DNA from: Octopus vulgaris
Lineage: Eukaryota
DNA length: 64,000 bases
Direction: 5' to 3'
Assembly (NCBI GenBank): GCA_951406725.2
Contig: OX597838.1
Location: 1,240,001 to 1,304,000, forward strand
Both the position numbers and the translations under genes were made by a program. The notes under the pieces are model-generated. The model was not told the origin of the DNA. It made no database searches and saw nothing but the letters and a program-made list of their open reading frames with translations. Positions 1,197-50,252 of the stretch are shown here, piece after piece (positions within the stretch are counted from its first letter, which is position 1; the number at the start of each line of letters is the position of its first letter).

Positions 1197-1302
1197 GTAA
1201 GATGACAATAATAACTGGTCCCTCTGGGTCAGGCAAATCAACATTGTTATCAGCCATGTTGGGGGAAATGGTCTTGGATTCTGGAGTCATGGAGTGGAAC
1301 AG
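1197..1302 (+). CDS. ABCC exon, NBD1 Walker A ([25 protein letters not shown]...)
   Basis: ctgtag|GT acceptor, AACAG|gtatgt donor; P-loop. Confidence 0.92.
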
Positions 1303-4300
1303 GTATGTTTCTATGTTTCTCTGTCTGTGTGTGTGTGTATGTTTTCATCATCATCTTCATTTAATATTCAATTTCCATGCTGGCATGGGTCGGATGATTC
1401 CACAGAAACTGGAAAGCCAGAAAACTGCACCAGGTTCCACTGTCTGCTTTGATATTGTTTCTATGACTGGATACTGCCCTTCCTAATGCCAACCACTTTA
1501 CAGAGTGGACTGCATGTCTTTGATGTGGTATCAATGCCAAATATATTGTTGTTTGTTGTGTTGACCTATCCTACCCTTGTGAGCTCAGACCAAACACATG
1601 CCCATGTCATGAACAAACATTAAAACAGTTTTTAAAAAGGTTTAATGATGTATTTTCATGCTTCATGTTAATTACTTTGTTTTGTATTGAACTCCTAACA
1701 TGTGGCAGTAATAAATAGCTTTACACTTAGTATGTTTATAGAGTTACAGAGACTGCAGAAATTATGTCCCTATCCTAATATGAAAATAAGTAACAGCTTT
1801 CTCACTTATTCACTAATTTAGCCAGCATTACGTTATATGTATGAATGGTAGCCTCTCACAAGTCTGAGAAAGACAATTCTGCAATTTCTTGCCGAACAAC
1901 CTTCCCAAATGATTTGTTTCTAGCAGTCAAGTGTTTGTGTTGCACCAAAGCTCTTACTCCCACCATCAAATTGTCATTACCTGTACAGGTGCACAAGTGT
2001 GTCACATGTCACATGTCGAAGTGATCGCAGACAAAAGTGAAATGGAGTGTTTTGCTGAAGAACACAACACGCCACCCGGTCTAGGAAATGAACCCACATT
2101 CTTGTGATTGCTGGTGCAACACCCTAATCACTAGGTTGTGCAATCTCTTATTTCTTATATAATGAATTGGAAACGGTTGTGTGGTAAAGAAGTTTGCTTC
2201 CCAACCACATGGTTGCAGGTTCAGTCCCACTGTGTGACCCACACATACATTGTGTGTGTCTCTTTGTCTTGATATCATGTAATAGTTGTAAACGAGAATC
2301 ACTTCCATACTGGTGGTGTCATTCATTTCTAATATTCTGCAGAAACATGTCTAACAATGTATAACTATTTCCTTGCTTGGAAATTGGTAAGAGCTGTCAA
2401 CAGGAAGGTCATTCAGCTGTAGAAAATATACCTCAATCAACTCTGTCCAAATCAGGCAAATTTGAAAAATTAAACATTGAAGCAAGAGTGACAGAGATAT
2501 ACATTCATAACATATTCTGCCGTTTAATTAGAAATGATCCTTAACAGTTTTGTTGCAACAATTTGCTATCCATTTGTAGTCACTAACAGTAAAGTTAACA
2601 CAACAACCTCTTTCACTAATATCATTCTTACTTGTTATTATAATTAACTGATTAATCTGTTTCTTTACAGAGCCTGTACATTGGCATATTGTTCACAACC
2701 ACCTTGGCTCATGAATGCCACAGTCCAAGAAAACATACTTTTTGGTCAACCATACAATTATAGAAAGTAAGTGTTTTTTTGAATATGTTTAGTCTTTTTT
2801 TTATGAAACTCTGTGTGTGTGTGTGCTGCAGTGCTGTTTCCTTGGTGTGAGTGGCAGTTGTGTTTTCTTGCTGTTGAAAGAGACAGGATTGGTACATCAA
2901 CTTTGGAGAATATAAAGTTAAACGTCAACAGTTTGGGATGTATGCTCATCAAAGAATCCATAATTGATGGAGAAGACCTTCAGTATTATGGATAAAGTAC
3001 TATGGATAACCATAAGGAATTGGGGACTGGATTGGGTGGCAGTGGTGGTGTGTGTATGTGTTTACATAATGTATTGGGTGGTATCTGTGTGTGTCTCTCT
3101 AAAGTACTTGTTGCTTATTGCAGATATAAAAAAGTACTCCATGCTGTTTCTCTGAACACAGACCTGACTTTGTGGCCAGCCAAAGACCGAACAGAAGTTG
3201 GTGATCAGGTAGGTTGATGAGTCAATCATCTCATTATTGTTATATTTAGAGCCATATTTTGAGTGTTCAGCCAATGAAGAGATGCTACTGTAGAATAATA
3301 TGGTCTGTTGAGAGTAGCAAATGGGTCTCCACCAGCTCTGGATTAACCATTAAGCAAAATAATCACATGCTTAGGGCATCAAGGGAAGGAGGGGGTACCA
3401 CAGAAATGGTAAATGGTTTACTGCACAAAAGAAATCACTTTAAACTTGCTAAAATAATATTCGGGATGCCTTTATCTCTACTAAGTATAGATGCAGATGT
3501 GTTACCTAAGATTAAATTTTGAGGATCTGATCAAAGACTTTGCAATTCAAAAAAGTAGGAGGAAACTTTTCAAATCTGAATAAAGGGGAGGGAGACAAAA
3601 ATAAACACTATTTTCCCTCTAACTGTTTTGTTTTGTTTTGAAAAACAAAAATTTATTTTATGGTTTGTTATTGTTTATATTTTGAATTACATCCCCTCAA
3701 AAATTGGTGGCCAAAGGTGGCAAGCTGGCAGAATCATTGGAGTGTTGGGGAAAATGTTTTGTGGCACTTTGTGTTCTGATATCAAATCCTATCAGTCAAC
3801 TTTGTCTTTCATCCTTTTGGACTTGATAAAGTACCGGTCAAGTACTCCGGACAATGGTCTTGATTAACACCCCTCCCCTCAAAATTACTGGCTTAAATTT
3901 GAAACAAATATTATTACTACCACCACCACCATCATCATCATCATTTATTTATTTCTGTTGCTTCCCTGAAGACTAGATCTTCCGATTCAGTGTTGCTCAC
4001 GTTTGTAGCAATATTCTCTATGAAATTTGCCGAGGTTGAATATGCCTTTCATCCCTTCCGAGTCGATAAATTAAGTATCAGTTGCATACTGGGGTCAATC
4101 CAATCGACTGGCCCCTTCCCCCAAAATTTCAGGCTTTGTGCCTAGAGTAGAAAAAAAAAAAATCTCTAGGAATTGTTTTGTTGTTTATTTAATTGCAGTT
4201 CTAAGAAGCTAAATCTTGATTTTTAAAAAATATTATTAAAAGATAAAGATGATGCAAGTGAGAAGTGGGAACTGGCTCAACCAACCAAACAACATCACCT

Positions 4301-5223
4301 TTTTAATTATTACTTTTTATTTTGTCTTTATTTTCAGGGTATCTTACTGACAGAAGGTCAGAAACAGCGTATCTCTCTTGCGAGAGCTCTCTATTCCTCA
4401 GCAAACACAATTATTATGGTAAGCATAATCTACCCACCTTCTTTACATGGACTCTTCCAGTTATCCATTTACTGGCTGCTACATTTCTATTTTAGGGGGT
4501 TAAAGATTGAGTTGAACTTAACAACTCCCATCATCATCATCATCATCGATCCATTTGCAAGTTTAACACCAGCACCTGGTCCTTGGCTGTTCTTTACAGG
4601 TGTCTACTTTGTTGTAAGCATTCTAACAAAATGTCTGGTCTGAAGGTTAAGCCCTCTCCTTGCCTCCTCCCCAATCCAACTGGTCATGAAAGCTCTAAAA
4701 AGGGTCATGGATATAAAAAAAAAACACATTGTAGGCCGAGGTCACAGTTTCATTTTCTCCAAGGGTGGAAATAAAGAAAAGCTGCTTCAAACAAGATTTG
4801 AACTTTAAAACATATTTAAACGTGTTCTGTTCCCAGGATGATCCATTCTCCAAGATAGAGCATCACCTTGGACGCAATGTTTTTGAGGAGGCAGTGGTAC
4901 GCAGCATGATCAGAAGAAAACGTACAGTTATCCTTGTCTCTCCACAAATTCCTCACATCTACAATGCTTATCAGGTCAGTTCCTTTCACAGACATTGTTT
5001 TACATTATTGTTGTTGATGTTACCTTGTTGCATAAATGTGCGTGTGTGTGTGTATTTGTTTGGGTGTAACTTATTTATTTATTATTAAATATTAAATATG
5101 ATAATATAAATTATTTACATGTTTTTCAGTTATGAAACAATTTGCCGTAAAATTAGAATTTTTTAACTTTTATATATAATTTCATCTAAATATTTCTGTA
5201 ATTTGTGACTTCTCTCTCTGTCA

Positions 5224-5267
<44 letters not shown>

Positions 5268-5755: not shown

Positions 5756-5823
<68 letters not shown>

Positions 5824-8800
5824 GTGTGTGTTTGTCCCCTATCACCACCGCTTGACAATCAGTGTTGGTGTGTTTACATCCTCATTACTTAGTGGTTCAG
5901 CAAAAGTAACTGATGGAATAAGTTACTAGGCTTTGAAAAATAAGTTCTGGGGTCATTTTGTTCGACTAAAACCCTTCAAGGCGGTGCTCCAGCATGGCCA
6001 CAGTCAAATAGCTGAAAGTAAAAGAACACACACACATTTACACACGATAGTAATTTCTACACATGCATGTCCCCCCTCCTCCCACACAATAGTAATATGT
6101 GTTTTGTTTCTCTGCAGATAATTGTTGTGAATCGTCACCAAATCAAATGTCAGGGAAGATTGAAAGACATAAAGCGTGCTGACCCTGACCTTTATGAAAG
6201 CTGGAGAAGAGTACTGAAGGATAACAAGTAAGTGTTAGCCCCTTTACACTTCACATCTGGGTTATATTATTCTTGCCATGCCTACATTTTATGTTATCCC
6301 ACTTGATTTTTTGTATTGTAACAACCATTACCTGTTTGATATTAACCTATTTTATTGTAGTAGAAGCTAAAATAATTGAATGTCGTGTTAACCCAGATAA
6401 ATGATGTGAGGTTAACCCATGTGGTAATTGAATGCTGTTAATACACTTAAATGAAAGGGGGTGATGGTGGTTTAACCCATTTAGCCATTGAATGTAATAT
6501 TAACCCATATAATTGATTGGAGTTGGGGGTTAACTCTTGAATGCAGTATTAGCCTACATTAATTGAATGTGGGCTGTTAACCCATGAAATCATTGAGTGT
6601 TTTAACTTCACATAAATGGGGGAGTTGGTCAAACCATATAATCCCTGAATGAAGTATTAACCCACAAAATGTTAACCCTCTCCCACATATTACAAGTCTC
6701 TTGACATCATTGTAACCCGCGAATATTCATATTGTGTTAACCCTCCTTCGTTCCCCGTATACTTAGCCGACATTAGCTGCCCCTGTCACACAGAGATCGC
6801 TTACGTCTGTTCAAATTGCTATTTTGTTGTTAGACCAAGTTACCTCCCTTCATCAATACCGAGTAGTCTCCCTTACTTAGAGATGATCCACTTACTCTCT
6901 CAGTTTGTAAAGTTTATAGTGTCTCCTACTTTGACATTCACTAATCCCATTTATAGCCATTATATTAATTATGCGATCCACATCCTTAATATTTGTTCAG
7001 GGTATATAAAGTAAATGCTAGCCCTCTCCCCAACTTCCTGGCCTTCTCTCTATATTTGAACTCGTTGAGAGGGCTGCCAGAAATCTGTAGAGTATTGGAC
7101 AAATATTTTCTGGTATTTATGTTGTCTAAATAATGTATATTTTCTTTTACTTGTTTCAGTCATTTGACTGCATCCATGCTGGAGCACCGCCTTTAGTCGA
7201 GCAAATCGCCCCAGGACTTATTCTTTGTAAGCCTGGTACTTATTCTATCGGTTTATTTTGCTGAACCACTAAGTTTGGGAATGTAAACACACCAACATTG
7301 GCTGTCAAGCAATGGTGGGCAAACAAGCACAGACACACAAATACATACATATAGACGAGCTTCTTTCAGTTTCTGCCTATCAAATCCACTCACATGGCTT
7401 TGGTCGGCCCAAGACTATAGTAGATGACACTTGCCCTAGGTACCACGCAGGAACCATGTGATTGGTAAACAAATTTATTACCACACAGCCACTCCTGTGC
7501 CTAAGTTACACAGCCACTCCTGTGTCTGTTCAGAGTTCAAATCCATTTGGGGTGAACTTTACCTTTTACTGGAGTTGTTAATATAAAGTTTGAGTCAATA
7601 AACTTCACCCCAGAAAATGCATGGCCTTTATTATTATTATTATTATTAAGGCAGAATTGTTAGCACGCCAGGCAAAATGCTTATCGGTATTTTGTCAATC
7701 TTTACGTTGAGTTCAGATTCCACTGAGGTTGACTTTGCCTTTTACCCTTTTGGGGTTGATGAAATAAGTACCAGTTACACCTTGTGCCTTTAGTAGAAAG
7801 GATTATTATTATTATTGGTGTTGTGGTGAGCTGGTAGAATTGTTAGTACAACAGGTAAAATGCTTGGCAGCATTTAATCCGACATTTTATGTTCTGAGCT
7901 CGAATCCTGCCAAAGTCTGCCTTGTCTTCCATCTTTCTGCAGGCAATGAAATAAGGTACGAGTTGTGAACTGGGGGTCAGTGTCAGTAGTGGAGTGGCAG
8001 CATTGTTAGACTGTGAGAAAAAGAAACTACTGTTCCAGCACTTTTAACATTCTGAGTTCAAATTCCACTGAGGTCAACTTTACCACACATCCTTTCAGGG
8101 TTGACAAAATAAGTTATACCAGTCAAGTCCTGGGATTCAAATTTAATTGACCCCCAGTACTTGATAGATATTTTACTCGGTTCCTATCCCCATTTTCCAA
8201 ACCTTGTGCCATTATTGAAAACAATTATGGTAGCAGATTGGCAGAAACAGTAGAGAGTCTGGAGAAATGTTTTGCCTATTTGTTCTGGTTCTGTATATTG
8301 TAAGTTCAAATTCCACTGAGTTTGATTTTGTCTTTCATTCTTTTGGGATCAATAAAGTTTTAGTGAAGAATTGGGGTTGATATAATTGCTTAATCCCTTC
8401 ATAAATTTGCTGGTCTTAAAGTAAGTTAGTGGGGTTGATGGAATTGACCATCCCACCCTTTGTAATTGATGGCCTTGTACCTAAATCCTAAATAATTATC
8501 AACATCATCATCATTGTCAAGAACACATAAATTATAATAATTAATCAGTTTTACTTTATCTTCTAACTTTCATTATTATATCAATTTTATTTCCAGAAGA
8601 ACTAATGTGGTTGAAAGGTATTTTTGATAGATTTTTATATATATTGATGTCATGTGGTCATGTCCTTGTCATGCAGCTGTATACTGTGAGTGTGTGTGAT
8701 GTAGTAAAATGTTATCAGTATCTGTAGAGTACTGTGTGTGTGTGTGTGTGTGTGTGAGCTGGATGTTGCAAAATACTCTGTGTGTTTGTGTGTGTGATAC

Positions 8801-11800
8801 AGCTTGGTTTTTATATATATTTCAGAACAAGATCTAGTAGTGAAGTACTCAATACATATTGATATTCTTTCAAAAGTATCAATAAGTATTGGTCAGTAGT
8901 GTTATTAGTAGTAGCAAGAGTAGTTTGTCCCCTGTCTTGTGCAGTATTGCATGACTGTCTTACAGCATGGTACCATTTGTCTTGTAATAAAGTCGTGTCT
9001 TCCTTGTGGTACTCTAAATTTCATAATAAGGTACTTTGTATGCTTTATTATGTGGTACTGCATGCCTTATAATGAACTACCATCAGGTTTTTTTTTGGCA
9101 TGGTACTCTATATCTTGCGATGAGGTACTATACTGTCTGTCTTGAGGTACTCTGTACCATGTAGTGTAGTGTTGCCTGTATGTCTTGTAGTGACGTACCC
9201 TATATCTTGTAGTCAATTTTGTAAGGTACTTTATGTGTTGTGTAATGAAGAACTCTATATTTTTGTAAGGTTCTGCCTCTTTTGTAGTGAGGTATTATCT
9301 TTGTTGTAGTGGAATACTCTCTTTATCTATCGAAGTGCTTTCTGTGTCATGTACTCGGGTACACTCTGTGGTGGTGCATGGCTTAGTGGTTAGGGTGTTG
9401 CACTCATGATTATAATATTGTGGTTTCAATTCCTGGACTGGGTGAGCAAAAACATTTCATTTCATGTTGTTCCAGTCCCCTCATTTGGCAAAAGTGAGTA
9501 ATCCTAAAGTGGGCTGGAGTCCCATCCAGGGTGTGTGTATACACCACAGATTCTGGGAAACTGGCCTTATGAGCTTATGGCTCATGATCCTTTTTTAGGT
9601 ACTCTCTGTATATTGGGTACTGAGGTACTCTTATATGTCATGTTGTGAAATGTTCTCTCTATGTCTACGGTTTTGCAACATATAAATCAAATGAGGAGTA
9701 CCTTCTATTTCCGGGTCAGTTTTATCTTTTATGATCTGCCATAGTCTGCTATGACATGCAGTGGTCTGCTATGGCCTGTCATCACCTCTGATGACCTGCT
9801 ATCCCTTCTCATTGTGTCCTATGACCTGTCAACATCTCTCTAGTTTGCAATGACTTCCTGTGATCTATCATGGTCTTCTATGCCTTGTCAATACATCTTA
9901 TGGCTTGCTATGACCTCTCAATGTATGTTATGATCTGTCATACTCAGCTATGACTTTGAAGGTCTTCCTACACTGATGCGATTGATGTGTCCAGCCTGAA
10001 CACGTTGCAAGTCAAAGGAATAATGAAAAACTTCAGCAAAACCTATTAAGAGTCTATTACAACATGTCACATGTAGCTATAATTTGTTCTAATCACCCTA
10101 AATAGCATGTTCCAACATGTCAAATATCAGTAATGAAGCTGTTGTTTTTATTTTGTTGCCCCAGGAGGAGATCAAGTCTTCCAGAAAGGTATTTTTTGGT
10201 TTCCTGTTTGTATTATCTTTTCTGGAATTTTGGTCATTAGTATGTCCTGTTTCACTCATTCTTTCTCTCTCACATACCAAACTGTCATCTCTGGTATTCA
10301 CATCTCTCTCTCACATACCAACCAGTCTCTCTAGTATTCACATTTCTTTCTCTCTCTCTCTCATGAACCAGTCTCTCTCTGCTATTCACATCTCTCTCTC
10401 TCTCTCACAATCTGAGTATATCTAAGTCACTAGGTTTTACATCTGTCTTGCATTTTTTGTTATAAATGCTGCTCAATACTCTGGACTGCCCAGTGCATGT
10501 ATTGGGTGACCCGATGGGCAGTAGGGCATGCTTTTGTCTACTTAGGTTTAGTATGATATAAACTGTAAAACTGAAATGACCTGGGGTTGTAACTCTTTGT
10601 TGAGGTGTCCACTCTCATATATCACTCTTATACCTCACCCAAAGCATCTATTATCTTCAATATTCACTCTTTTGTCATAGTCATCCTTTACTCATTAGTC
10701 AATACAAATATTTCAAAGATTTTGTGTCATTTCCTTCTTTTGTTGATTCATTGAAGTTTCAATTTTCACATTGATATTTTAGAGACTAATGAAATCACAT
10801 TTTGATTAATCTATTGATCTCTCTTTCATAAAACAGCAAAACTAGAGTGTTGCCTGCTTCATATGATTGGTAACTTTGGAACTATACTTTTGCTACCGTG
10901 GGTACCATCAGGAAACATGACATACATACAATAATTAATTTTTATCAAATTTCTTGGTGTTTATACAAAATGAGGACATGAATATTAATTTTGAAAAGAA
11001 AAAATATTTGTTACTTTCTCCCTCTTTCTATGATTCTTTCTGTCATTGTGTGTGTGCATGCGAGACATTCCTTTACTCATTGTCTGTTACCAAGCCTAGT
11101 ATGTGCAGTCATCCTGTACTTGTGTTAAATCTCTCTGTATCTCTTTTTTTACACTCATTCTTCTGCTCTTTATACACTATAAGTATGACTAGAGAATTCA
11201 ACCAACCAACCAATATTTTTTATTGGTTATTATTCAGTAGAGATAAAAATATTTCTTTCTTTCAAGTTATTTTCATATGAATTATGTAGAGCAATTTTGT
11301 TTTTCAGCAGGTGATTTGTGCGTGTGTGTGTGTGTGTACAGGGATGGTGCATTTTTTGTTTGTTTTATGTTTCTGTTTTCATTGTGTTGTTTTGGCTGAT
11401 TTTCAAACAATGTCAACCCTGTACACTCTTGTAAAGTGGTTAGTAAATGAACAAAGATAAACATAGTGCAGAGAAGATTGTTTAGACATGCTGAAGAGAC
11501 AGCAACCTCTCTAGTGTTGGTGCCACAATAAAATGCACTCAATACATTCTGTAGAGTGGTTGGTGGTAGGAAAGGCAAACAGATGTATGATATGTACGAC
11601 CCTTGATCTTCTGGCCTTTCTAGATGGACACCAGCTCCAAATAACAATTGCTTTGGATCACGGTGATCCGTTCATCCCATGCCAGCATAGAAAATAGATA
11701 TATAAAAGGATAATGTTGATGTCTGATAATCGTGTTTCCTTCCTGTTTCAATCTGATTCCAAGATGTTATTGTGTGATTGTTGAGGATGATGATGATGAT

Positions 11801-12699
11801 GATTGTTACTCTTTTTTTTCTAATTTATGTTGGATACAAACATTAATCAATTTTCATTATTATTTGTTTTTTATATTTATTCATTTGTTTTTATTTCTTT
11901 TGTTTCTGGTTTTAGTGCCTGAGGTCGTCTCTACTCATTATCAGTTTGACAGTTTCAGTTTTGTTATCAGAGTTGTATGTCTTGTATTGCCTTAATGAAT
12001 ATATTTTTAGCTGCAGCTATAATTATTTTGGTAAATTTATGCACAGTCATAATTGATACTAATTGTGGCATTGAATTCTGAAAAGTTTGTCTTTGTTTCT
12101 TGGGGGAACTTGTTCCATTGGTTTTTTTTTTTTTTTTTACTTTTTTGAAGTTGGAGTTTTTTTTGCGGGGGTGGGGGGTGGGGGTTAATGCCTGGGAAAG
12201 AGTTATTGTAGTTGGTTTGGTAGGGAGTGTGTATGTGTGTACCTTTTAATGTGAGTAGCTGTGTATTCATTCTCATATCCCACTGAGAGGCTGAAGATGG
12301 GAGAGAGTGGGTGCTCCCTGTTCCTACTTTACAAAATTGAGAAGAACCATTTTAAAAGGCCGAAGAGCTATAAATGGACATCTTCTTTACATAGGAAGAT
12401 ACCAGTGACATGTAAGATACAACTTGGAGTTGTGTGTGTGTTGTGGAGGCAACACACACACACACTTTGTTATGTATGGGTGACCAAAGAAGAGAGAAAA
12501 GTATTTAGTGAGCATAAAGTTTAGCAACTTATTTGGATCTTGAACTTCATCCTGTTGCTACTCAAGATTTCTTGTTTCTCTGAGGTTCTTGAAGTTGTTT
12601 TAAATAGCAAAACAGTAACAAGAGACTCAATAACAACAGGGAAGGCCAGAACTTTCAGTGAATGAAACTATTTTCATATATATATATGTTAAATGTGTG

Positions 12700-12747
<48 letters not shown>

Positions 12748-12849
12748 TATCTATCTAGCTATATATATATCTTTTGATTTCCAATGTGCATTTTTCGCTT
12801 ATTTTTCTTCTTACTTTCCCCTTACATTGCAACATGTAGTTTCTATTTT

Positions 12850-12916
<67 letters not shown>

Positions 12917-27553: not shown

Positions 27554-27589
<36 letters not shown>

Positions 27590-28259: not shown

Positions 28260-28291
<32 letters not shown>

Positions 28292-36016: not shown

Positions 36017-36049
<33 letters not shown>

Positions 36050-37515: not shown

Positions 37516-37554
<39 letters not shown>

Positions 37555-40500: not shown

Positions 40501-43500
40501 GAGTTCTTTTACAGGGCTTAGAAAAACTAAAGGACCACTGCAATAAGTGTGTGAATCTGAGAGGGATGTTGAATAAAATCATAATTAAATAATCCTCCTG
40601 TATTTTCTTTTACCCAAAACCAGGAACGTTAAAAAAAAACCCTTTGTGTTTGTACATCATAAAGTCTTAGTAAAAACAACAAAGGCTTTTATATTGTCAG
40701 AAATATGACATAGGGATTCAAAGGCCCAGTATTCAGTTGTCTGACCATATTGGTAAGAATATATAATTCCTAATTGTAGCACTACTGCCATGTATAAAAC
40801 GCAGCCAGATCACTCCAGCTATAGAAACCATGAAAAAACAGACAGTTGGAGCCTGGGGCAGCTCTCTGGCTCGCCAGCTCCTGTCAAACGTTCCAATCCA
40901 TTCCTGTATAGAAAATGGATGTTAAATAATAATGATGACGGTGATGATGACACTGCAACATAGATTTGCTGAGGAGAAAGAGAGACATGGGACAATTGGC
41001 TTCATTACTTCTCTGGTGTCTATTGGCCCACAATAATAAAAAGCTAAGTGAAATATGCAGAATTGAACTTGGACTACTATTGCTGCTGCTTTAGAAATAG
41101 TAATTGTTTCTAATTTTGGTACAAGGTCAGCAATTTTTGTGGGTTGGTAGTGTAAGTCAATGAAGTTGACCCCAGCCTTAACTGATCCTTTACTTTATTA
41201 AATCTAAGAATGTAAAGTGTCTGAACAACTGTCTCATTGCATCTTTGCCATGGTGCTAACAATTCTGCCAGTTGATCACATTCAGCAGTTGTAATAACAA
41301 CAGTTATAAGCTTCCCAGAATAATGTTTCTGTCCATTTAAATGGTTAACTTGTGTAACAAGAACTTCTTATTGCAGGATTTCCTTGGATGCCTTATTTTA
41401 TTACTGGCATCACTTGGTAGCTTGGCTTTCTCCATTCAAAACGAAGAAAATGGCACATTAGTTGGACTCTGTATGTTGAATGTTCTCATGGTAAGTAGAA
41501 TTTGATGAGTTCTTCATGTTTTGGTAGAATCACAGGATCACATTTCCTTCCTTAGTTTTGCTGAAAGCATTGCTGACCCCTACAAGTCATCTCTGAAATT
41601 CCTCTTCCAGCTGGACTGGTCAGCTCTTGTATATTTCTGATAAACAATACCTGCATTGGAGAATTGTGTAACTGATTCACATATGCAACACTGGCATCCA
41701 GTTTCTGATTGAATAGTTAAAAAGCGATTTAATATCAGATTTCCAGTACTAACCTCCAGTATTTTTCTGACTGGATAGTGATGCAGTGAATGAAATTTTA
41801 GTTCTTACCGAAATCTTAAACATTCCACTGACCAAAATACAAAACATCACTGTCTATTGTGAATGTAAATTGGAAATCAGAAACAATGTGACTGATGTCA
41901 TTATAATGCCCAACATTAATCTGGAGATAAATGTTGTAATTTTCAGGGCAGCTGAGCCACTCTTGTGTAAAACCTTTATATATACGACCCGTATAATATA
42001 TACATGCTAATTCATATTTCTTTGGTTCTCTTCTTGAGTAGAGAAATTTCTTGGATGATTTTATCTTTATTTTACTGTACATCTATGTAGTAATATATTT
42101 CTGATGGAAACTATGATGTATTTTTTCATCATTGCTCTGTGGAATTTTTATCTATTTCAGATGCCAATTTATGTGAACATGATAGCACGTCATGCAACAG
42201 AACTAGAGAACAACATCACGTCTTTAGAAAGAGTTGTGGAATATGCTTGTGAGACACCACCTTCAGTAGATCCACCAGGTGTGTCATCATTTTTATTGTC
42301 TTTGAATATTTATTGAAGTCTTGTACCATTGATTGTCATCCTACAACTCTATACACTGCTGCTGGTAATGTCTTGAAATGTTTGGCAAGTCTCTGCTTGA
42401 ATTAATGCCAGAGTTTCTAAGTAGCTCTGGAACCTGATCAGTGCCACAACATAACAGTCAGATCTCATTTCACTAATTCCAAACTGTCTGTACATATTTA
42501 ATGTTCAATCTAATGCCCGACAATAAAGACAAAATTGTAATTTCTAACTCAGTCATAGAGACAAACAATTCAGAAAAGAGAACAATGAGTTATATGAATC
42601 TACAGTTATTTTATTGACCCCGGAAGTGAACATGAGATGGATTTGAACTCAGAATACAAAAGTGTGCTGATCATTTTCTCTCATGCTCTACTGATTATGG
42701 CAATCCCTGAAATATTGATTGTATACCTTATTTGATTATTTACCTATATACTACACTGTATATGTATTATGTGTGATACAAGTACTACGTACTATATAGT
42801 TATTACCAAATGCCAAAGAGGTTCTATGTATTATATAGATGTTCTTAAGTACTGTGGTTGTACTTTTAAAGAAATGAAGTGACACAAATGAAAGTAAAGA
42901 AAAAAACACAGGAATATTTATTACTTAATGGTGAAGGGAACAAACACTTAAAAGTTTATGCAAAGATCTGATGTGTTGATGCAGTTGTGAATGGTAATAT
43001 TAACAAACACGGTATCCAGAAATAACCTGTTCATTGTCATCTATCGAATAAGGAAGATTTTGTACATGACAAAATGCATCAACTTTGTAATGTTAGGGTG
43101 GTGTAGAGAATTGTGTAGTTCTAAGGAGTGACTCTGGAAAGTGGCACCACAAAAAATTGCCTGGTAGTGCAACTGCAGCAGCATTGATGGATAACTAATC
43201 ACTTGTCTGATATATTTTCACACCTTTAACCTTAGTTTTGTGTTTTATATTGAATATGTAAGCTACTGATTCCTAATGAGTTACCAGAATAAATTGTCTT
43301 CCAAAGAGCAAATGATAACACTTTTTGAGAGCCTCAACTTTCACATAAACCCCTTTTTCTATTGTGCAATGATTTCATATGGTTTAATTTAGTGATTAAG
43401 AAAAGAAAGGTAACAGGCCTGCCATTTTCCTTGATGGTGACCTTGAAAGACATCAACGTCGAGGGTAAACAGCACATGTTTGTTAACTTAGTCCTTGACT

Positions 43501-46500
43501 GACTGTCATTACTGTTTTTGAAGACATTGGTGGCCATTACTGCTTCCTCAGAGCATTGACCAGATGTCTTTTGTTTTAGAGAAGTGAGTAACCCATCAGG
43601 AATATGCAAACAGACCTGTTGTTATGTGGTAAGGGTTCATTAGCAAACATGGATCTCTGAATGGAGGTAAACATAAGGAAATCAAGATGCAGCTCATTGT
43701 GGCTTAGAATAGAATATATGAATTAGAATATAACCTAGAATACAGATAGATTCAAAATCTACACCTTCTGTGTCATTTAGATTTATAAGAGCGCTTTAAG
43801 AATTTATATAAATTTTTGTTATGTTCCTCTTTGATCTTATCACATTTCACATCACATAAATAAGATTATCCATGTTGGAAACATGCAACATTATTCGTAA
43901 GAGCAAAACTAAGACATTTGAATTGAAACATTTGACTGTCTTATCATCAGAAGGCAATAGAGTTGTATGTGCTGTGTAAGTTGGTAGGATTAAATAGCTT
44001 CTAAAAAGAGATTTTGTTTGAGAATTTAATAGTATCAGAAGAGCCAACTGTTGATGCTCTTCTACTTGAAGAGTTTCATCAGGTGGACATAGATTTTCTT
44101 CAGTCCATTTCTTTAAATCGAATATAAATTGGATAATTAGGGAAGGTCGGTTATTTGTAGGGATTTGTGAAGCAGATTATATATTGTCAATGGAATGTAG
44201 CAATACTCCTACAAAACTCCTTCCCTAAATTATTGTTTGCAAAGTAGAAATGCTATTTTAGTCAAATAGATTAATTATGTATTTTTTAAAATTACAGTTT
44301 TGCATCTAACTTGCCTTTATTCTAAAATGTTATTTCGCTTTTGTCTTTATATTACAGATTGCATTGAGGTACCTGAGTCTTGGCCAGATGTTGGTGACAT
44401 TGAATTTCAACATATTGCCTTAAACTATGATCCTGAACAGAGCCCCGTTGTTATGGATGCCACTTTTACTATAAAAGATGCGGAAAAGGTAACAAATCTT
44501 GTTGTTTGTGATGGTGATGGTAGAGGTGGTTAATTACAGACTTACGCTGTGGTAATAACTGATCATTTCTTTGGGAGTGACTCCTCTCCATACATCTAGC
44601 GAGAACTGGTAGAGAAGGACTTACTGTAAAGATGGTGGATAGCTTAAAGATTTGTCTGGTAATATTGTGGGATATGCGATATATATATAACCCTGATCAA
44701 ACAAACTTTTGATCAAAGACGTTCCACCTGTCATTTATTTTTTTCAGAAATAATGTATGTCTTGATGGTAGTGTGTTATTTCAGGAAGATTATATTACCA
44801 TATCTGTGAGGGTATGTGAGCTAGTGGTTAGGGTGTTGCACTTACAATTGCTAGGTAGTGGGTTCAATTCCCAGATTAGGAACACTTCATTTCATATTGC
44901 TCTAGTCTATACAATTGTAAATGAATAACCCCATGATGGACGAGCCTTCCAATCATAATTCGAAAGCTAAAACAATGCAAGGTGCATTGTGACCAGTGAT
45001 GTATAACATTCAGTAGTTTGGTCAATCACATGATCATGTGACATTACCCTATCTAGCTGGTCATGTGACATTACCCCTATCTAGCTGGTCACGTGACCAC
45101 ACATCAGCTCTTTTGTTGGTTTGTGTATGTTATGCAAAGGTGGAGTGATGCTGAAGATGTTGATGGTTATATTTAGTAATGTTAGTGCTGGGATGATGAC
45201 TAGTCTAGAGGTGGTTAGTCATGGTGACAGTGGTTGTGTGTGTTCCTTCTATTGCTGCCAGTTACACAGCAGTTTGTTGTTTTTCTATATTTCAAGGTGG
45301 CCTTCTGTGGACATGCTGGGAGTGGGCGATCATCTCTCATCTTATCCTTATTCAAGATGATCCATGTACATGAAGGAAAGATCTTGATAAACTATCAGGA
45401 CATATCAGTTGTGCCGTCCCAAGTTCTGAGATCTCGTCTTTCCATTGTACCCCACGACCCAATCATGTTTGACGGAACAGTCAGGTGAGTTTCTCATTCA
45501 TCATTTCAAATCTACATTATTCCAAACTCAACATGTTGTCTGTCTCTATAAATTGTATCTATCATTGTAAAACTGTGATGTGGACCAAATGGAATCTGTG
45601 TTTACATTTGCAGTTGTTCAGCTTTTCACAAAAATTTTAATCTTCTTTGAGTAATACTTTAGGAGTAAATAGTAAATTAGCTAAAGAGACGAACTGCTAA
45701 ATTGGATAGAGTGGCAGATTACTAACCGATTGATTTGTTGCTGTAGAAATACATACTTTATCAGAGGTGAGTATAAAACCACTGAGGTTCAGGGTTGAGG
45801 TATGAATAGACTCTGGAATTTGAAACTGTGTTGAAGTAGATACAGAAATAACTGGCCAAATGTCGTAGCTCAAATATGCCAGATACATCTAGCCTGTCAC
45901 TTTAAACTTAAGACACAGTTAAGCTTCTACTCAAATGAAGCTTTATCAAATTTTATTAAAATAACAGTTTGAACAACTTGTGTAAATCTATGAATTTGTA
46001 TATCAAGTAAACCTGTATTAAACTAAAACCAAGCAAACATAAAGAGAGTCAGTTAATGCCGATATCGGAAATGTTTTGTTTTTCAGGTTCAATCTCGATC
46101 CAGAAGGCATATATAAAGATCCAGAGATTTGGGAAGCTTTGAATGCAGTTCAAATGAAAAGCACAGTTCAAGAGCTTCCCCATAAACTGGGTATGTTGAT
46201 AAAGATGTTGTATTTTTAGGATTGCCATTGCTTGACACATCAATAATCACACACACACCTTCCTTTTGTTATATATAATGTCAAACTGACCCTCATAGGT
46301 AAACTCCAAACTGATCTTACATATACTTTCAACAGCTGATTAACCTGATTAAGATCTCTGAGAAGACATTTTAAACTACTTTGACACTTAAATATGTTGA
46401 TTGAATGTAACACATTCTGAAGGGTTTCCTGTTATTATTCTCAGTCAGCAGTTCGTTACTCGGAGGAATTTCATTAATTTGGACATTAAACCAAAGGTAG

Positions 46501-49500
46501 ACAGGGAAGCTTACTTCTGCTGTTGTTGTTTAGCCCCAGGTCAACCTTTATCTTAGTTGTTCAAATCACGATCTTCATAGAGAGGTCTGTTATAATATTA
46601 ATGTACTTTTCTTTTGTTCACATGTTAGGGTGTAATTGGAGGGGAGATTTGGCTGTTATTTCTAGCAGGTAGAATTCCCTCATTGGTCTTAAAAAGCCAT
46701 TGCAGAACTCATTGGTAACTGGTTCAACTTATGGAGAAGAAATGGGTTTGGTGAACATAGTTGCCTTATGAATGTAGGTCAATTTTCTCTCTGTTGAAAC
46801 CATTCAATTGGTTTTTGTGTCCTGATAATTGACTGACCACAGTTCACTAGTAGCAAGAACATAAATGGACAGCAAAATACACAGAGGCCTTAGCTAGAAA
46901 GTAAATTCAATGAAATGAAGCCTATCTGGACTTACAGCCAGTGAATTTTCATAGTTGCAGCAATCTTTTTTTTATGGATGAGAAACCTGGACTAAGTCCC
47001 TAGCATCTCTTGAAGCTCACTCAAATTGCAGAAAATGACCAGTAAATAACTCTGTAGCAACCTTATTTCAGTTGACAAATAAGACAATAGTTGCTGTTTA
47101 ATAAAGGCATTGATTGAGGCAGCCAGGGTTGCTCACCAGCCAAATTGACGCATGGCATGATGAACTGTGGAGTGTCCTTCCAAGACCATGGTCAAAACTA
47201 ATGAAATGCAATGCTGCTATGATTGATGAAGAACTTAGAACACTAATGGATGATGGAATGGGGTATATGGTGCACCTATCATTGTGTCGAAAACAAGTGC
47301 AAGTTGTAGTCATTAGAAAGACTTTTTTTTTCTTTTTTTGGTATTCCATACTAATATTTATCTCACGATCACAACACACCCATCTATCTGTATATATATA
47401 TTTATATAGAATTAAAATTTTCAGGATTTGGTGGAATCAGAGTATTTAGATAGCAAAAGCAGCAAGGTAGAGTTGGGGATATTGACATATACATACTTAC
47501 TAAAGTAAATATGGATTTGTCCTTCCAGTTATGCACACACACACACAAGTACTTACAGAATACACAGTATGCATTCAAAGTCACACGGGGGTACACTCAC
47601 TGCACAAACTCCACAGTTGACTATAGGCTCCAGATCCAAATGCATGGAAGGTTCCAAGTTAGGTGAAGAATAAACAATAACCTATCTGTGTTTATTGTGT
47701 GTGTGCGCGCACATGCAGACACACACACACAGTTTCTGCAAGGTTAAGGCTGCCCCTGTCAGCACTTTATATTATATCTGGGTACTCTCCTTTAGCAGCT
47801 ATAACCACGAGACCCCTTCAATGTGGTTAATTAGGATTTCCTGTATAACTGCTTAACATTTCAAAGAGACACTCAGAAGTACACAGTCGAAGTTGCCCTT
47901 AATATTGAACACTATTTTGTCTGAATTCTGTAATCTGTGTTACCCCAAATGTTGTAAGCTATATATCCCATAATCTGTGTTATCTCAAACACTTACCTCT
48001 AGCCTCTAATCTGTGTTACCCTAAACACTGTCAGATGTAGCTTGTAATTTGTGCCCAAACAGTTGAAATTATCGTTTATATGGTTATTTTTACCAGTGAT
48101 ATTTCTCTCCACAGAAACTGTTGTCCTCCATGAAGGCAAGGAATTTACTATTGGCCAAAGACAGGTGAGATTTTCAAATGTTTTAATTGTTCATTTCCTT
48201 TAGCCGATGTTTATTACATGAAGGTATTGGATTAAATAATTGACCACAAGATCGCATGTTCAAAACCAGCCTTGTACAGTCATTGTGTTTGATTCCCTAG
48301 GAAAGTTTCCTCATTATGTGTGTGACTTAAATATATGTAATCCTTGTTTCTTTTACAGCTTTTCTGTTTTGCTCGAGCTTATATGAGAGACAGTAAAATA
48401 GTTATTGTGGAGCAGGAACACACTAACGATGATGCCTTGATGGAGGAAACCATTCAGGACCTCATCCGCACTGTGTTCAGGGATTCCACCGTTCTTGTGA
48501 CTTTGGTGAGTGAACTTTATTTTCAAATCCTGAATATATTAAAGGATTGAATTAACTTAAATTTATTTTAAAACCAATTATTTAAACATATATTCATTGA
48601 AATAACTCAGATTTCCTTAGCGCATATGCAAGTGCCTCCTACATTGTGCATGTATATGTGTGTGTGTGTGTGTAGATTTGGAGGCATTGTGTATAGCTTG
48701 ACAAGTATTTCTTCAAACCACAGCAAAGGTAAGATTTGAACACAGCAATGTAAATCAACAATGCTCTCAAATGCAGAATGTCAGCTGATCCAGGGCAGAA
48801 GGATTTGTTCTGGCAAAAGTGTCCAGTCCATTGACTTGTAGTTTTAGTCAAACCCCTTACTGGTGCGTCTAACCCCTTACTGGTGAGTCCAACCCCTTAC
48901 TGGTGAGTCCAACCCCTTATTTGTGAATCCAATCCCTTATTGATGAGTCCACAATACTCTTTAAAGAGGCCAGATTCCCCAGTTTCTGTGGCATACGCAT
49001 TCCTCCCTGGATGGGATGCCAATCCATTGCAGGGTTACTCGTTCTCTAGCTGAGTGGAATAGTGCAATGTGAAGTGAAGTGCTTTGCTCAAGAACTCAAC
49101 ACATTCCCCAAACCAGGAACTGAAACCACAATCTCAAGATCATAAGTCGAACACCTTAACCACTAAGTCATATGCCTCCACTATTGATTTAAAAAAATGT
49201 TATTCCTTCATAAAAAATACATTTTACTATATCTCTCCTCCTTCAAATGAATTTTAGACTAAGTCCTCTTACTAACCAATTGTTACTAAATTCTAATTCA
49301 ATTCTTAAATTATCCTTTGCTTCTCCACACTCCCATTAATTATAGTAATTCCTGTACCTGGTTGATAAATTAGCTTGTTCATTCTTAAGTGTTAACAAAC
49401 AGAAGCCATGTTGTCTTCCAAGTTGAAAGACTCAATTGTGTGTAGGCAGCTCTTTAGAACTGACGGTTGCTCCTAAAATGGTAAGGAATGATTCACAGAT

Positions 49501-50252
49501 GGAAACATTAACCTGAGACCATCATTTACTGGTGGGACAAAGTTTAGGGACAGCGTGATAATTTCAAATAATCTTGGTATTATGTAGGGTTAAGATCATC
49601 ATTGTTATTTAACGTCTGTTTTCCCTGCTGGCATGAATTGGATGGTTTGACCAGAGCTGGCAAGTTGCAGAACTGCACCAGACTGCAGTCTGACTTGCTA
49701 TGGTTTCTACAGCTGGATGCCCTTCCTAACACCAACCACTTTACAGAATATGCTGGGTGTTTTTATGTGGTACTGCACAAGACTCTTGCAGGTAAATCAT
49801 CTTCACCAGAGGGAGCAGCCTTATTGCTTCTGCTGTGGGGTATGGGCCCTCTTGAGTACAGTGAGGTGTCAAGCATCTTGGTCCTTTAAGATATATTATA
49901 TAAGGTGATATGTGTGCACGCACACATGTTGTGGCAACATTGTGAATAGAGTTATATTGCGTAAGGTGATGTGTAGTGTTGCATTGTGGGAACACTAAGT
50001 GTGTGTGTGGTGTGGTATTGGAGATGTCTTTTGATTCTTAATTCTGTCATTATATGTGATGTTTTCTTTACTTTCCAGCATCATCTGACTCATCTAAATG
50101 ATTATGACCGTGTTATGGTATTAGATCAAGGTAGAATTGTGGAATTTGATAAAGCTTCTGAATTATTAATGAATGAAAACAGCATGTTAGCAGCATTGGT
50201 ACGAGAAAGCCAGCTGAAACGGCCCAACAAAGTAGTCATCACTATTTCTTGA
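1197..50252 (+). CDS. ABC transporter subfamily C, SUR (ABCC8/9)-like; 3' part of a multi-exon gene (NBD1-linker-TMD2-NBD2); 5' exons lie upstream of the window
   Basis: 22 AG/GT-bounded exons splice in frame to a stop at 50250-50252. Recognisable motifs: Walker [82 protein letters not shown]. The post-NBD1 DPDLYESW segment and acidic linker are SUR-like. Exact orthology was not tested. Confidence 0.93.
2671..2766 (+). CDS. ABCC exon, NBD1 Q-loop ([32 protein letters not shown])
   Basis: tttacag| acceptor, |gtaagt donor; phase 2-2. Confidence 0.92.
3124..3208 (+). CDS. ABCC exon ([28 protein letters not shown])
   Basis: ttgcag| ... CAG|gtaggt; matches the ABCC D-T-E-(I/V)-G segment. Confidence 0.92.
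4338..4418 (+). CDS. ABCC exon, NBD1 signature ([27 protein letters not shown])
   Basis: ttttcag| ... ATG|gtaagc; signature reads LTEGQ instead of LSGGQ. Confidence 0.92.
4837..4974 (+). CDS. ABCC exon, NBD1 Walker B end/D-loop/H-loop ([18 protein letters not shown]...TVILVSPQ...YQ)
   Basis: tcccag| ... CAG|gtcagt. Confidence 0.92.
5603..6025 (+). mobile_element. tRNA-headed SINE, family A, with internal (TA)n tract
   Basis: A/B-box-like head (GGCTGTGTGGTAAG...GGGTTCAGTCCC); homologous copies at 7142-7503(-), 14545-14673, 25628-27755(-, split), 57632-57770(-), 60560-60975, 62075-62345. Confidence 0.8.
6118..6227 (+). CDS. ABCC exon, end of NBD1 ([37 protein letters not shown])
   Basis: tctgcag| ... 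AA|gtaagt; ends in phase 2. Confidence 0.9.
7142..7503 (-). mobile_element. SINE family A copy
   Basis: reverse complement of the 5603-6025 element. Confidence 0.8.
7645..8500 (+). mobile_element. Tandem cluster of tRNA-headed SINE family B copies separated by (ATT)n
   Basis: repeated GAGCTGGCAGAAT-GTTAG...GAGTTCAAATTC...GACTTTGCCTTTCATCCTTT...AAATAAGTACCAG. Confidence 0.75.
8597..8617 (+). CDS. Candidate 21-nt micro-exon (RTNVVE), phase 2-2
   Basis: ttttatttccag|AAGAACTAATGTGGTTGAAAG|gtattt; frame-preserving and stop-free. Confidence 0.6.
10165..10188 (+). CDS. Candidate 24-nt micro-exon (RRSSLPE), phase 2-2
   Basis: ttttgttgccccag|GAGGAGATCAAGTCTTCCAGAAAG|gtattt; encodes an RRxS site. 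Confidence 0.65.
13029..13049 (+). CDS. Candidate 21-nt micro-exon ([R/K]RSSLAE), phase 2-2
   Basis: tttgatttcag|GAGATCCAGTTTGGCTGAGAG|gtatta; peptide resembles that of the 10165 micro-exon. Confidence 0.65.
13230..13860 (+). mobile_element. Three head-to-tail SINE family B copies
   Basis: same motifs start at ~13230, ~13453 and ~13660. Confidence 0.8.
14674..15458 (+). mobile_element. RTE-clade LINE fragment (RT C-terminal half plus PHD-like finger), truncated at both ends
   Basis: [22 protein letters not shown] motifs; closely related to the 25835 copy; abuts a SINE A 5' part. Confidence 0.92.
16626..16710 (+). CDS. ABCC linker exon ([28 protein letters not shown])
   Basis: ttccag| phase 2 ... 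CAG|gtatgt phase 0; bridges the phases of the flanking exons. Confidence 0.82.
17474..23660. repeat. 6.2 kb intronic satellite of 18/19-bp units (GTGTTAGTCCCTGTTTTG / GTGTTAGCCCCATGTGTTG)
   Basis: direct inspection; roughly 330 units estimated from length divided by unit size. Confidence 0.97.
24084..24171 (+). CDS. ABCC linker exon ([29 protein letters not shown])
   Basis: tttcag| phase 0 ... G|gtaagt phase 1. Confidence 0.82.
24855..25135 (+). mobile_element. SINE family C (tRNA B-box head plus TTGAGCAAGACACTT core)
   Basis: GAGTTCAATTCC box; related heads at 9370-9590 and 44815-45030. Confidence 0.6.
25835..27555 (+). mobile_element. 5'-truncated RTE-clade LINE with 3' UTR and (GAT)n tail, frameshifted
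   Basis: [53 protein letters not shown]; ends GGACGTTAAACGATGATGATGAT. Confidence 0.95.
28480..29390 (-). mobile_element. Degraded Chapaev3-like (CMC) DNA transposase remnant
   Basis: minus-strand fragments read [41 protein letters not shown] and MMVDYCWNL; family label is from recalled motif similarity. Confidence 0.65.
31177..31620. mobile_element. hAT (Charlie-type) non-autonomous element
   Basis: TIRs CAGGGGTTTCCAAC / GTTGGGAATCCCTG; 8-bp flanks ATCTAGAT / ATGTAGAT. Confidence 0.8.
31350..31532. mobile_element. Hairpin MITE with ~80-bp TIRs (GG...CC ends, 8-bp TSD; Merlin-like), nested in the hAT element
   Basis: GGATCTTTACC...GGTAAAGATCC; perfect TSD CAAAAATT at 31342-31349 and 31533-31540. 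Confidence 0.85.
32445..32808 (-). mobile_element. Helentron-associated non-autonomous element (HINE/DINE-1-like)
   Basis: minus strand begins TTATTACCTCCGCC with a short hairpin, has a (GTTT)n tract, and ends GGCAGAGGTTTGCGCTCTAAGTGCTCTTGTT (subterminal IR plus hairpin). Confidence 0.7.
33164..33411 (+). CDS. ABCC exon, acidic linker end and first TMD2 helix (EDNEEEESP...GSIS...SDLWLANW...)
   Basis: gatag| phase 1 ... AAG|gtaggt; DxWLxxW motif of ABCC TMD2. Confidence 0.88.
33632..33827. mobile_element. piggyBac-like MITE
   Basis: TTAA|CCCTTTTG...CAAAAGGG|TTAA. Confidence 0.7.
34862..35028 (+). CDS. ABCC TMD2 exon ([13 protein letters not shown]...[10 protein letters not shown]...)
   Basis: ttgcag| ... 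AT|gtaagt. Confidence 0.9.
35452..35521 (+). CDS. ABCC TMD2 exon ([23 protein letters not shown])
   Basis: tttcag| ... CAG|gtaagt; diverged FFDTTPxGRILNRFSxD motif. Confidence 0.9.
36161..36246. repeat. Near-perfect 86-bp palindrome
   Basis: centred on CATGCTAGCATG; 3 non-Watson-Crick positions. Confidence 0.9.
37290..37447 (+). CDS. ABCC TMD2 exon ([12 protein letters not shown]...FKFYRPSIR)
   Basis: tttcag| ... AG|gttagt; hydrophobic helices. Confidence 0.9.
37990..38285. mobile_element. Inverted repeat (~110-130 bp arms) carrying a minimal hammerhead motif; Penelope-like pseudo-LTR remnant
   Basis: arms ~37990-38120 and ~38160-38285; minus strand GTCTGATGA-N12-GAAACAGCTGTAAGAC at 38007-38043. 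Confidence 0.65.
39322..39414 (+). CDS. ABCC TMD2 exon ([31 protein letters not shown])
   Basis: tttatag| ... AG|gtatat; HFSExxxGLxTIRA motif. Confidence 0.92.
39767..39869 (+). CDS. ABCC TMD2 exon (VQYWFTG...NRWLAIRL)
   Basis: tttcag| ... TTG|gtaagt. Confidence 0.92.
40432..40648. mobile_element. Mariner-type MITE remnant
   Basis: imperfect TIRs ACAAGGG..AAAGTTCCTGGCTTT / AAAACCAGGAAC..CCCTTTGT. Confidence 0.5.
41377..41490 (+). CDS. ABCC TMD2 exon ([18 protein letters not shown]...[11 protein letters not shown])
   Basis: ttgcag| ... ATG|gtaagt. Confidence 0.9.
42161..42278 (+). CDS. ABCC exon ([28 protein letters not shown]...)
   Basis: tttcag| ... G|gtgtgt; matches the ABCC E..SVER..EY motif. 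Confidence 0.9.
44358..44488 (+). CDS. ABCC NBD2 start exon ([23 protein letters not shown]...AEK)
   Basis: ttacag| ... AAG|gtaaca; WP..G.I.F motif. Confidence 0.92.
45297..45484 (+). CDS. ABCC NBD2 Walker A/Q-loop exon ([13 protein letters not shown]...[20 protein letters not shown])
   Basis: ttcaag| ... AG|gtgagt; Walker A K>R, Q-loop Q>H. Confidence 0.92.
46087..46190 (+). CDS. ABCC NBD2 exon ([34 protein letters not shown])
   Basis: tttcag| ... G|gtatgt. Confidence 0.92.
48115..48164 (+). CDS. ABCC NBD2 signature exon ([16 protein letters not shown])
   Basis: ccacag| ... CAG|gtgaga. Confidence 0.9.
48359..48505 (+). CDS. ABCC NBD2 Walker B exon ([25 protein letters not shown]...TVLVTL)
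   Basis: tttacag| ... TTG|gtgagt; DE replaced by EQ. Confidence 0.92.
48850..48950. repeat. 20-bp tandem repeat, about 5 copies (AACCCCTTACTGGTGAGTCC)
   Basis: direct inspection. Confidence 0.85.
50079..50252 (+). CDS. ABCC terminal coding exon ([24 protein letters not shown]...VITIS*)
   Basis: ttccag| acceptor; TGA at 50250-50252. Confidence 0.92.
   Translation, partial: HHLTHLNDYDRVMVLDQGRIVEFDKASELLMNENSMLAALVRESQLKRPNKVVITIS

Follow-up and report, generated by a model that had tools for sequence, protein, structure and literature searches.

A coleoid sulfonylurea receptor orthologue with a rewritten consensus nucleotide site and a splice-variable linker

The gene in the window and its linker exons

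The window analysed here comprises 64,000 nucleotides of Octopus vulgaris contig OX597838.1 (assembly GCA_951406725.2, positions 1,240,001 to 1,304,000 of the forward strand). It carries the 3' half of a long gene of many exons that we identify as the coleoid orthologue of the sulfonylurea receptor (SUR), not as an independent ABCC, and whose product we read as a pseudo-ATPase derived from SUR that has been retained under constraint in coleoids. The gene runs along the + strand from 1197 to 50252 in 26 exons that encode the first nucleotide-binding domain (NBD1), a linker, the second transmembrane domain (TMD2) and NBD2, 921 residues in all. Every exon has an AG acceptor, the 25 internal donors are all GT, and a single open frame passes through the 26 exons to a stop codon at 50250-50252. 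Without two optional exons the translation is identical to the O. vulgaris "ABCC9-like" protein P0009 over 897 of 897 residues; with all exons included, a single one of its 921 residues separates it from O. sinensis isoform X1 (P0014), and 12 separate it from O. bimaculoides X1. The NBD2 Walker A exon, used as a query, returned five close proteins: one each from O. sinensis and Argonauta, a cuttlefish fragment, and two clusters, one of them with a cuttlefish member. TMD0 and TMD1, the N-terminal half of the protein, lie outside the window and were read from orthologues; residue numbers are those of the full-length P0001 (1797 residues).

Exons were placed by the exon model and motifs by alignment. 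NBD1 has an intact Walker A with its lysine (exon 1197-1302), an intact Q-loop (2671-2766) and a helical subdomain exon (3124-3208). Its signature, which forms part of site 2, carries S984T and G985E (codons 4347-4361, exon 4338-4418), and the exon at 4837-4974 holds the end of Walker B (Asp, as in all ABCC), the D-loop change D1014E and an H-loop that has lost its histidine. TMD2 occupies exons 34862-35028, 35452-35521, 37290-37447, 39322-39414, 39767-39869, 41377-41490 and 42161-42278, the last of which contains the last helix. NBD2 starts at 44358-44488, where the A-loop tyrosine is kept. Its Walker A (45309-45332, with R1583H, T1584A and K1588R) and Q-loop (45444-45461, with Q1630H) share exon 45297-45484, which is followed by a helical subdomain exon (46087-46190) and a signature of the ABCC-typical degenerate form, near canonical (48115-48164). 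Walker B and the D-loop (D1709E, E1710Q, A1711E and T1712H; 48407-48421) lie in exon 48359-48505, and the last coding exon (50079-50252) keeps the H-loop histidine, with R1742H and T1745H adjoining, and ends in the stop.

Between NBD1 and TMD2 lies a linker whose exons are in part optional. It begins in the NBD1 C-terminal exon (6118-6227), placed by contigs as well as by the exon model. Three micro-exons of phase 2, known from isoforms and from a scan, come next: micro-exon 1 (8597-8617, 21 nt) has no kinase site of its own and gives an arginine to the next, micro-exon 2 (10165-10188, 24 nt) encodes an RRxS motif and was seen in Octopus isoforms only, and micro-exon 3 (13029-13049, 21 nt) also encodes RRxS. 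Both cuttlefish-side clusters have an equivalent of micro-exon 1 and one of micro-exon 3, the latter with its RRxS kept. Two constitutive exons follow, the first with an RRxS at 16657 (16626-16710, seen in contigs too) and the second with an RxxS stretch common to gastropod SURs and the start of an acidic run (24084-24171). The run ends in exon 33164-33411, which also encodes the first TMD2 helix. An optional 48-nt cassette (30205-30252), known from isoforms, interrupts it; when the cassette is skipped, as in isoform X8 and the O. vulgaris models, the run is formed by the junction of exons 24084-24171 and 33164-33411. Annotated Octopus isoforms include or skip each of the three micro-exons and the cassette. 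The first-pass annotation had described alternatively spliced micro-exons and an acidic, phosphosite-rich linker. Both descriptions are borne out, the former with one extra micro-exon (8597-8617) and the latter in the sense of a linker that is acidic and rich in kinase motifs, from which phosphorylation is predicted.

A scan of 6228-16625 found exactly these three micro-exons against a null mean of 0.39, with 2 of 300 simulated sequences reaching three and none of the 300 giving two RRxS exons, a chance test that is generous in that the scan criteria were set after the exons had been seen. The same scan found none in seven other introns (12,093 bases). With the micro-exons included, [RK][RK]x[ST] motifs number 4 instead of 1 in Octopus and 2 instead of 1 in the cuttlefish-side clusters, and coleoid linkers span 106-144 residues with 1-4 motifs. 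Among the matches listed for contigs from four sequencing runs, presumed to be RNA, three runs gave a long contig that joins 6227 to 16626 and skips all three micro-exons; the contigs of the remaining run stop precisely at the 6227/16626 junction. Contigs that include a micro-exon may lie outside those listed. The three micro-exons share a terminal GA[AG]AG with GTATT directly after it, a likeness suggestive of their origin from a single ancestor by tandem duplication. Octopus isoforms have a further optional insert of 25 residues in the TMD1-NBD1 linker near P0001 residue 713, outside the window. The transcript-derived proteins of cluster 3 (P0003-P0032) show three K/R or Q/R differences (563, 938 and 1079) of A-to-G type, which may be editing or alleles. 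Elsewhere, fly ion channels are described as enriched in neural micro-exons in the available passages of PMC8797185.

A sulfonylurea receptor by descent, with a rewritten site 2

The first-pass annotation had offered two origins for this gene, an independent case of an ABCC abandoning transport or an extreme SUR derivative. The second is correct. Among PDB sequence matches of the orthologue the best 11 are all SUR1 or SUR2 (749-926 bits), compared with 558 for MRP1 and at most 378 for CFTR; the match to MRP1-5 is far weaker than that to SUR. P0001 possesses a SUR-type TMD0, for which the PDB alignment covers SUR2B residues 3-332. In a fold model of NBD1-TMD2-NBD2 from a coleoid orthologue (TMD0 and TMD1 are not in the model) the NBDs and TMD2 are confidently predicted and the linker is disordered, and the best 13 fold matches are SUR or ATP-sensitive potassium (KATP) channel structures. 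A tree of 29 rows nests the four coleoids within the clade of mollusc SURs (SH-aLRT 100), where their stem measures 0.87 and their crown branches about 0.1-0.2, and a topology that joins the coleoids to four MRP-type outgroups is rejected (approximately unbiased test, p=0.022). Because this tree is a quick LG+G4 reconstruction with a long coleoid branch and without CFTR or MRP1, we give the TMD0 homology equal weight. The ABCC core also has the degenerate site 1 (Asp after the NBD1 Walker B) and the acidic NBD1-TMD2 linker of a SUR. On TMD0, PDB matches, tree and topology test together, independent origin is rejected.

With the vertebrate SUR1 and SUR2 (ABCC8/ABCC9, the KATP regulatory subunits), which give the best sequence and fold matches, the coleoid protein shares the TMD0-L0-TMD1-NBD1-TMD2-NBD2 layout, the conserved TMD0 and the acidic linker run (12 D/E in 15 residues in coleoids, 15 in SUR2). 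It differs in its rewritten site 2, in the loss of the site 1 A-loop Trp and H-loop His and of the K134 equivalent, and in its longer linkers with RRxS motifs and micro-exons. Kir6 is not known from invertebrates. The gastropod and bivalve SURs (Aplysia, Biomphalaria, Haliotis, Mytilus "ABCC9-like") form the sister group, at 32-49% identity to coleoids in the ABC core and 51-52% in TMD0. As a separate point, coleoids and vertebrate SURs both lack, at P0001 residues 1183-1200 (33164-33232), a motif preceding the first TMD2 helix that is conserved in other mollusc and annelid SURs, a possible convergence.

A query with abalone SUR ranked 26 gastropod and bivalve rows and one annelid above the coleoid proteins, and no canonical cephalopod SUR appeared among its 120 best matches, a result of protein search and not a genome count. 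A TMD0 profile search gave no protein recognisable as Nautilus. Among 23 of its long hits no canonical SUR is attributable to cephalopods; none of the 23 has the coleoid NBD2 pattern, and several have no NBD2. Two SUR-like proteins from this profile search, P0330 and P0415, have an odd NBD1 signature or Walker A, with a canonical-type NBD2 in P0330. The Pfam TMD0 model leaves P0001 unmatched, and abalone SUR itself matches it only below the cut-off.

The dead consensus site reported in the first-pass annotation is real, its degenerate motifs standing in the DNA at 4347-4361, 45309-45332, 45444-45461 and 48407-48421. The changes listed above for NBD2 (Walker A, Q-loop, Walker B and D-loop) and for the NBD1 side (signature and D-loop) are identical in 4 of 4 coleoid cluster representatives, and the searched site-2 motifs are altered in all of 29 coleoid proteins wherever the motif is covered. 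In comparison, the four NBD2 catalytic residues are canonical in 26/26 gastropod and bivalve rows and in all 35 non-coleoid SURs, and the NBD1 signature in 25/26 and 34/35, respectively (one gap). At coleoid site 1 the A-loop Trp and H-loop His are lost, with variable replacements.

To lose the Walker A lysine, Walker B aspartate, catalytic glutamate, Q-loop glutamine and signature Ser-Gly is to lose the groups for Mg and phosphate binding and for ATP hydrolysis. From general knowledge of ABC proteins, site 2 as predicted here cannot hydrolyse ATP and has probably lost the normal holding of Mg-nucleotide. All five elements are changed in 4/4 coleoid clusters, and because the consensus site 2 is altered we do not file the protein as a KATP-type MgADP-sensing SUR. 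It possesses neither the catalytic site 2 that powers transport in an MRP-type exporter nor the hydrolysis-competent site 2 of a CFTR-like channel.

A conserved TMD0 and a burst of change in NBD2

Of the residues conserved among 21 canonical SURs, coleoids keep 42 of 44 in TMD0, and in the ABC core the figure is 184 of 298 (Fisher p=2e-6). This count excludes P0156, P0161, P0164, P0166, P0089, P0170, P0171, P0173 and P0174 as well as the arthropod, amphioxus and hagfish rows, all of which are present in the 35-row motif count. In vertebrates TMD0 is the main Kir anchor, according to the available passages of PMC9700523.

NBD2 went through a burst of change and then came under strong constraint; it did not decay. 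Its coleoid stem measures 1.13 and its crown branches average 0.094 (TMD1 and TMD2 have stems of 1.04 and 1.31), and between octopods and the cuttlefish side NBD2 is the best-conserved domain (86%). Of the changed conserved sites, 28 of the 33 in NBD2 are fixed, compared with 37 of 81 in the remaining core (p=1e-4). The most surprising observation is a gain of histidines: 8 fixed gains occur in the 242 positions of NBD2 versus 10 in 1111 positions elsewhere (p=0.008, for a test that was picked after the motifs had been seen and that was one of two residue types tested). Five of the eight lie in Walker A, in the Q-loop, after Walker B and beside the H-loop. In ABC domains these site-2 loops meet at the Mg and phosphate position.

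Control of a SUR that has lost its site

The first-pass annotation had proposed that control moved from ATP hydrolysis to splice-tuned phosphorylation. The starting point of that move is unsupported: vertebrate SUR is controlled by Mg-nucleotide binding and not by hydrolysis, as available passages of PMC9700523 (Mg-nucleotide regulation of KATP without hydrolysis, the role of hydrolysis being called unclear) and PMC4397924 (SUR1 switched by binding without hydrolysis) describe, and what was lost is therefore likely to have been MgADP sensing. [quoted passage not shown] As excerpted, the preprint PMC13648608 treats the NBD1-TMD2 linker as a regulatory element across ABCC (SUR2B, CFTR, Ycf1, MRP2) and gives SUR1 linker phosphorylation as undetermined.

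The proposed destination of the move can be judged against molluscs whose site 2 is canonical. When isoforms were compared at the protein level (where a micro-exon and an alternative splice site look the same, and with fragments that do not span the linkers excluded), optional inserts that create an RRxS were found in 4 of 10 canonical-motif mollusc clusters. Aplysia and Biomphalaria have such an insert of 5 residues in the NBD1-TMD2 linker, which raises the motif count from 2 to 3, and Dreissena and Mya one of 7 residues in the TMD1-NBD1 linker; Bradybaena and Mytilus have NBD1-TMD2 linker inserts without RRxS, and four oyster-like clusters have no linker inserts. Constitutive linker motifs are likewise common to canonical gastropod SURs, which share RxxS- and RRxS-rich acidic linkers with coleoids. 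Counts of [RK][RK]x[ST] are 1-3 in gastropods, 0-2 in bivalves and 1-2 in coleoid representatives, and one coleoid linker stretch matches limpet and abalone nearly letter for letter. The acidic run is a SUR hallmark: of 15 residues, 12 are D/E in coleoids and likewise in amphioxus, all 15 in human SUR2 and 6-10 in other molluscs. As a side observation, the isoforms of oyster SURs (P0264-P0269, P0290-P0293, P0169/P0299) carry one or the other of two versions of a TMD1 segment, in the manner of mutually exclusive exons.

Because canonical mollusc SURs have them, splice-tuned kinase motifs are independent of the dead site, and optional kinase-site inserts likely predate its loss. Micro-exons in canonical, catalytically active orthologues were what the first-pass annotation had itself named as refuting its link, and at the protein level the optional inserts answer to that description. 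It had also asked whether motif loss and micro-exon gain fall on one branch. Micro-exons 1 and 3 are placed on the coleoid stem, the branch of the site loss, and RRxS inserts occur without site loss in other molluscs. The optional inserts of those molluscs lie at positions other than the coleoid one, which in turn is unseen among their isoforms, and an added coleoid layer of micro-exons may thus have arisen on the stem branch of the loss.

We propose that the coleoid SUR serves a membrane partner through TMD0, uncoupled from MgADP and tuned by an inherited linker to which coleoids added micro-exons, a reading for which we see an even balance between its being right and its being wrong. The protein would be a non-transporting, non-hydrolysing membrane subunit whose conserved TMD0 is predicted to hold a channel partner, likely a Kir-type channel. 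Once site 2 had been rewritten, MgADP would no longer be reported. With the nucleotide switch gone, the inherited disordered linker, with its acidic run and RRxS motifs, would be the main adjustable element left. Phosphorylation would change the way it lies between the two NBDs or on the tail of the partner, and in some tissues inclusion of the micro-exons would bring 1-3 further sites. Control by the linker would then have been left by default and afterwards elaborated, not newly moved.

Several observations weigh against this proposal. NBD1 keeps its Walker A, Q-loop and Walker B, and NBD2 its signature together with the A-loop Tyr and the H-loop His, and with these motifs some nucleotide binding may persist. 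The TMD0 basic residue aligned with SUR1 K134 is Gly in 4/4 coleoids and Lys or Arg in 25/26 other molluscs; SUR1 K134 contacts lipid at Kir6.2, according to the passages available from PMC9700523. NBD2 is better conserved than a passive dead domain would need, and phosphorylation of the linker sites is predicted from their motifs. SUR1 E1506Q, described in an excerpt of PMC4397924, binds MgATP at 0.9 uM rather than 200 uM and MgADP more weakly. Invertebrate SURs are known, and their partners are assumed to be Kir or TRPM4, in the available passages of PMC11577616 and PMC8733639, which show no invertebrate SUR-Kir complex.

Three other explanations deserve weighing. The micro-exons could have arisen as a replacement, with control handed from the nucleotide site to splice-tuned PKA phosphorylation. 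Such a transfer agrees with the mapping of micro-exons 1 and 3 to the stem of the site loss, with the RRxS kept in micro-exon 3, with the multiplication of motifs on inclusion (1 to 4 in Octopus, 1 to 2 on the cuttlefish side) and with the contigs of one of four runs that break at the micro-exon junction. However, RRxS-creating inserts occur in the 4 of 10 canonical clusters, coleoid motif counts are not above those of gastropods, the long contigs of 3/4 runs skip all three micro-exons, and hydrolysis is not needed for SUR gating in the passages of PMC9700523 and PMC4397924 cited above. We therefore consider a hand-over unlikely.

Alternatively, site 2 may have been rebuilt as a His/Glu-rich site for protons or Zn2+, so that pH or metal would be sensed instead of ADP. 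The eight fixed histidine gains, five of them in site-2 loops, point this way, as do the long NBD2 stem followed by a short crown and the fixation of 28/33 changed conserved sites. However, the histidine test was chosen after the motifs had been seen, the clustering of the histidines was judged without coordinates, and fixation could instead serve folding or an interface; we regard a new ligand as improbable. In its fullest version, to which we give similarly little credence, the only SUR of coleoids would be a pseudo-ATPase in which a single burst had converted the ADP pocket into a proton- or zinc-sensing His/Glu site, with the PKA sites of the micro-exons tuning its output by tissue. If this were true, a channel regulator would have swapped energy sensing for pH or metal sensing.

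The protein could also be a constitutively "on" SUR, in which ATP is bound tightly and unhydrolysed and the NBDs stay dimerised. The roughly 200-fold tighter MgATP binding and weaker MgADP binding of SUR1 E1506Q (PMC4397924, as excerpted) would fit, and the available part of PMC8458931 lists both E1507Q and R1380H among human variants from patients with neonatal diabetes. These two residues are 127 positions apart, as are coleoid R1583H and E1710Q, and are likely equivalent to them, a correspondence obtained by subtraction and not by alignment; the NBD2 A-loop Tyr and H-loop His are retained as well. Yet the losses extend to the Walker A Lys, the Walker B Asp and the Q-loop Gln, the signature Gly has become a Glu facing the phosphates, and site 1 lacks its A-loop Trp and H-loop His, which leaves an ATP-locked state doubtful. 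SUR1 variants (E1506Q/E1507Q, Walker A lysine mutants, R1380H) show the same kinds of site-2 change, but as single changes in a mammalian protein, whereas coleoids have about ten combined and fixed across the lineage.

Much less probable is that the gene is a decaying spare paralogue, an annotation or pseudogene artefact, or one whose motifs are rescued by A-to-I editing. Cephalopods recode heavily by RNA editing, the signature Glu codon GAA is editable to Gly, and the stem branch is long, but the open frame, the spliced contigs and the short crown branches argue otherwise, and a canonical paralogue was not found among the listed protein-search matches. Editing rescue is rejected: A-to-G changes are not enough to turn CGA, GAG and CAG back into codons for Lys, Asp and Glu, and transcript-derived proteins show the same motifs. 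Hardly credible at all is a non-SUR ABCC that independently became a CFTR-like channel: its linker does carry kinase motifs at the R-domain position, and the fast divergence of TMD1 and TMD2 on the coleoid stem (1.04 and 1.31) could mean that the core changed role, but the SUR-type TMD0 and the tree placement speak against it, the linker has only 106-144 residues with 1-4 motifs, and CFTR needs hydrolysis at site 2 (PMC9700523, available passages). CFTR (ABCC7) and Ycf1 resemble the coleoid protein in having a disordered kinase-motif linker at the same place, theirs being a phosphorylation-gated R domain, and differ from it in that both keep a working site 2; CFTR in addition has its own pore, needs hydrolysis and gives a far weaker sequence match.

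On the preferred reading, a linker-tuned subunit uncoupled from MgADP, a SUR kept under strong constraint after its MgADP site was rewritten would be a natural experiment that isolates the sensor-free role of SUR. It leads one to expect no classical ADP-activated KATP current in squid or octopus, and snail and octopus SUR would form a matched pair for finding the invertebrate partner. The case bears on whether a SUR needs ATP hydrolysis, or nucleotide at all, in a setting where invertebrate SUR function is poorly known. Searches of the open-licence literature, some aimed at cephalopod or invertebrate SURs or at doubly degenerate ABCC proteins, listed no paper on a cephalopod SUR; subscription papers and genome-paper supplements could mention one.

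Repeats accompany the gene. The intron between two linker exons contains a 6.2-kb tandem satellite (17497-23655) of period 18/37 (about 334 or 167 copies), and linker introns hold broken-up LINE retrotransposons, with matches to Pfam RVT_1 and a zinc-finger-like one, at 14656-15440 and 25830-27232. Located 3' of the gene, at 51900-52400 (+) and 53340-53889 (-), are decayed pieces of mariner-type transposases with weak DDE_3 and Transposase_1 matches.

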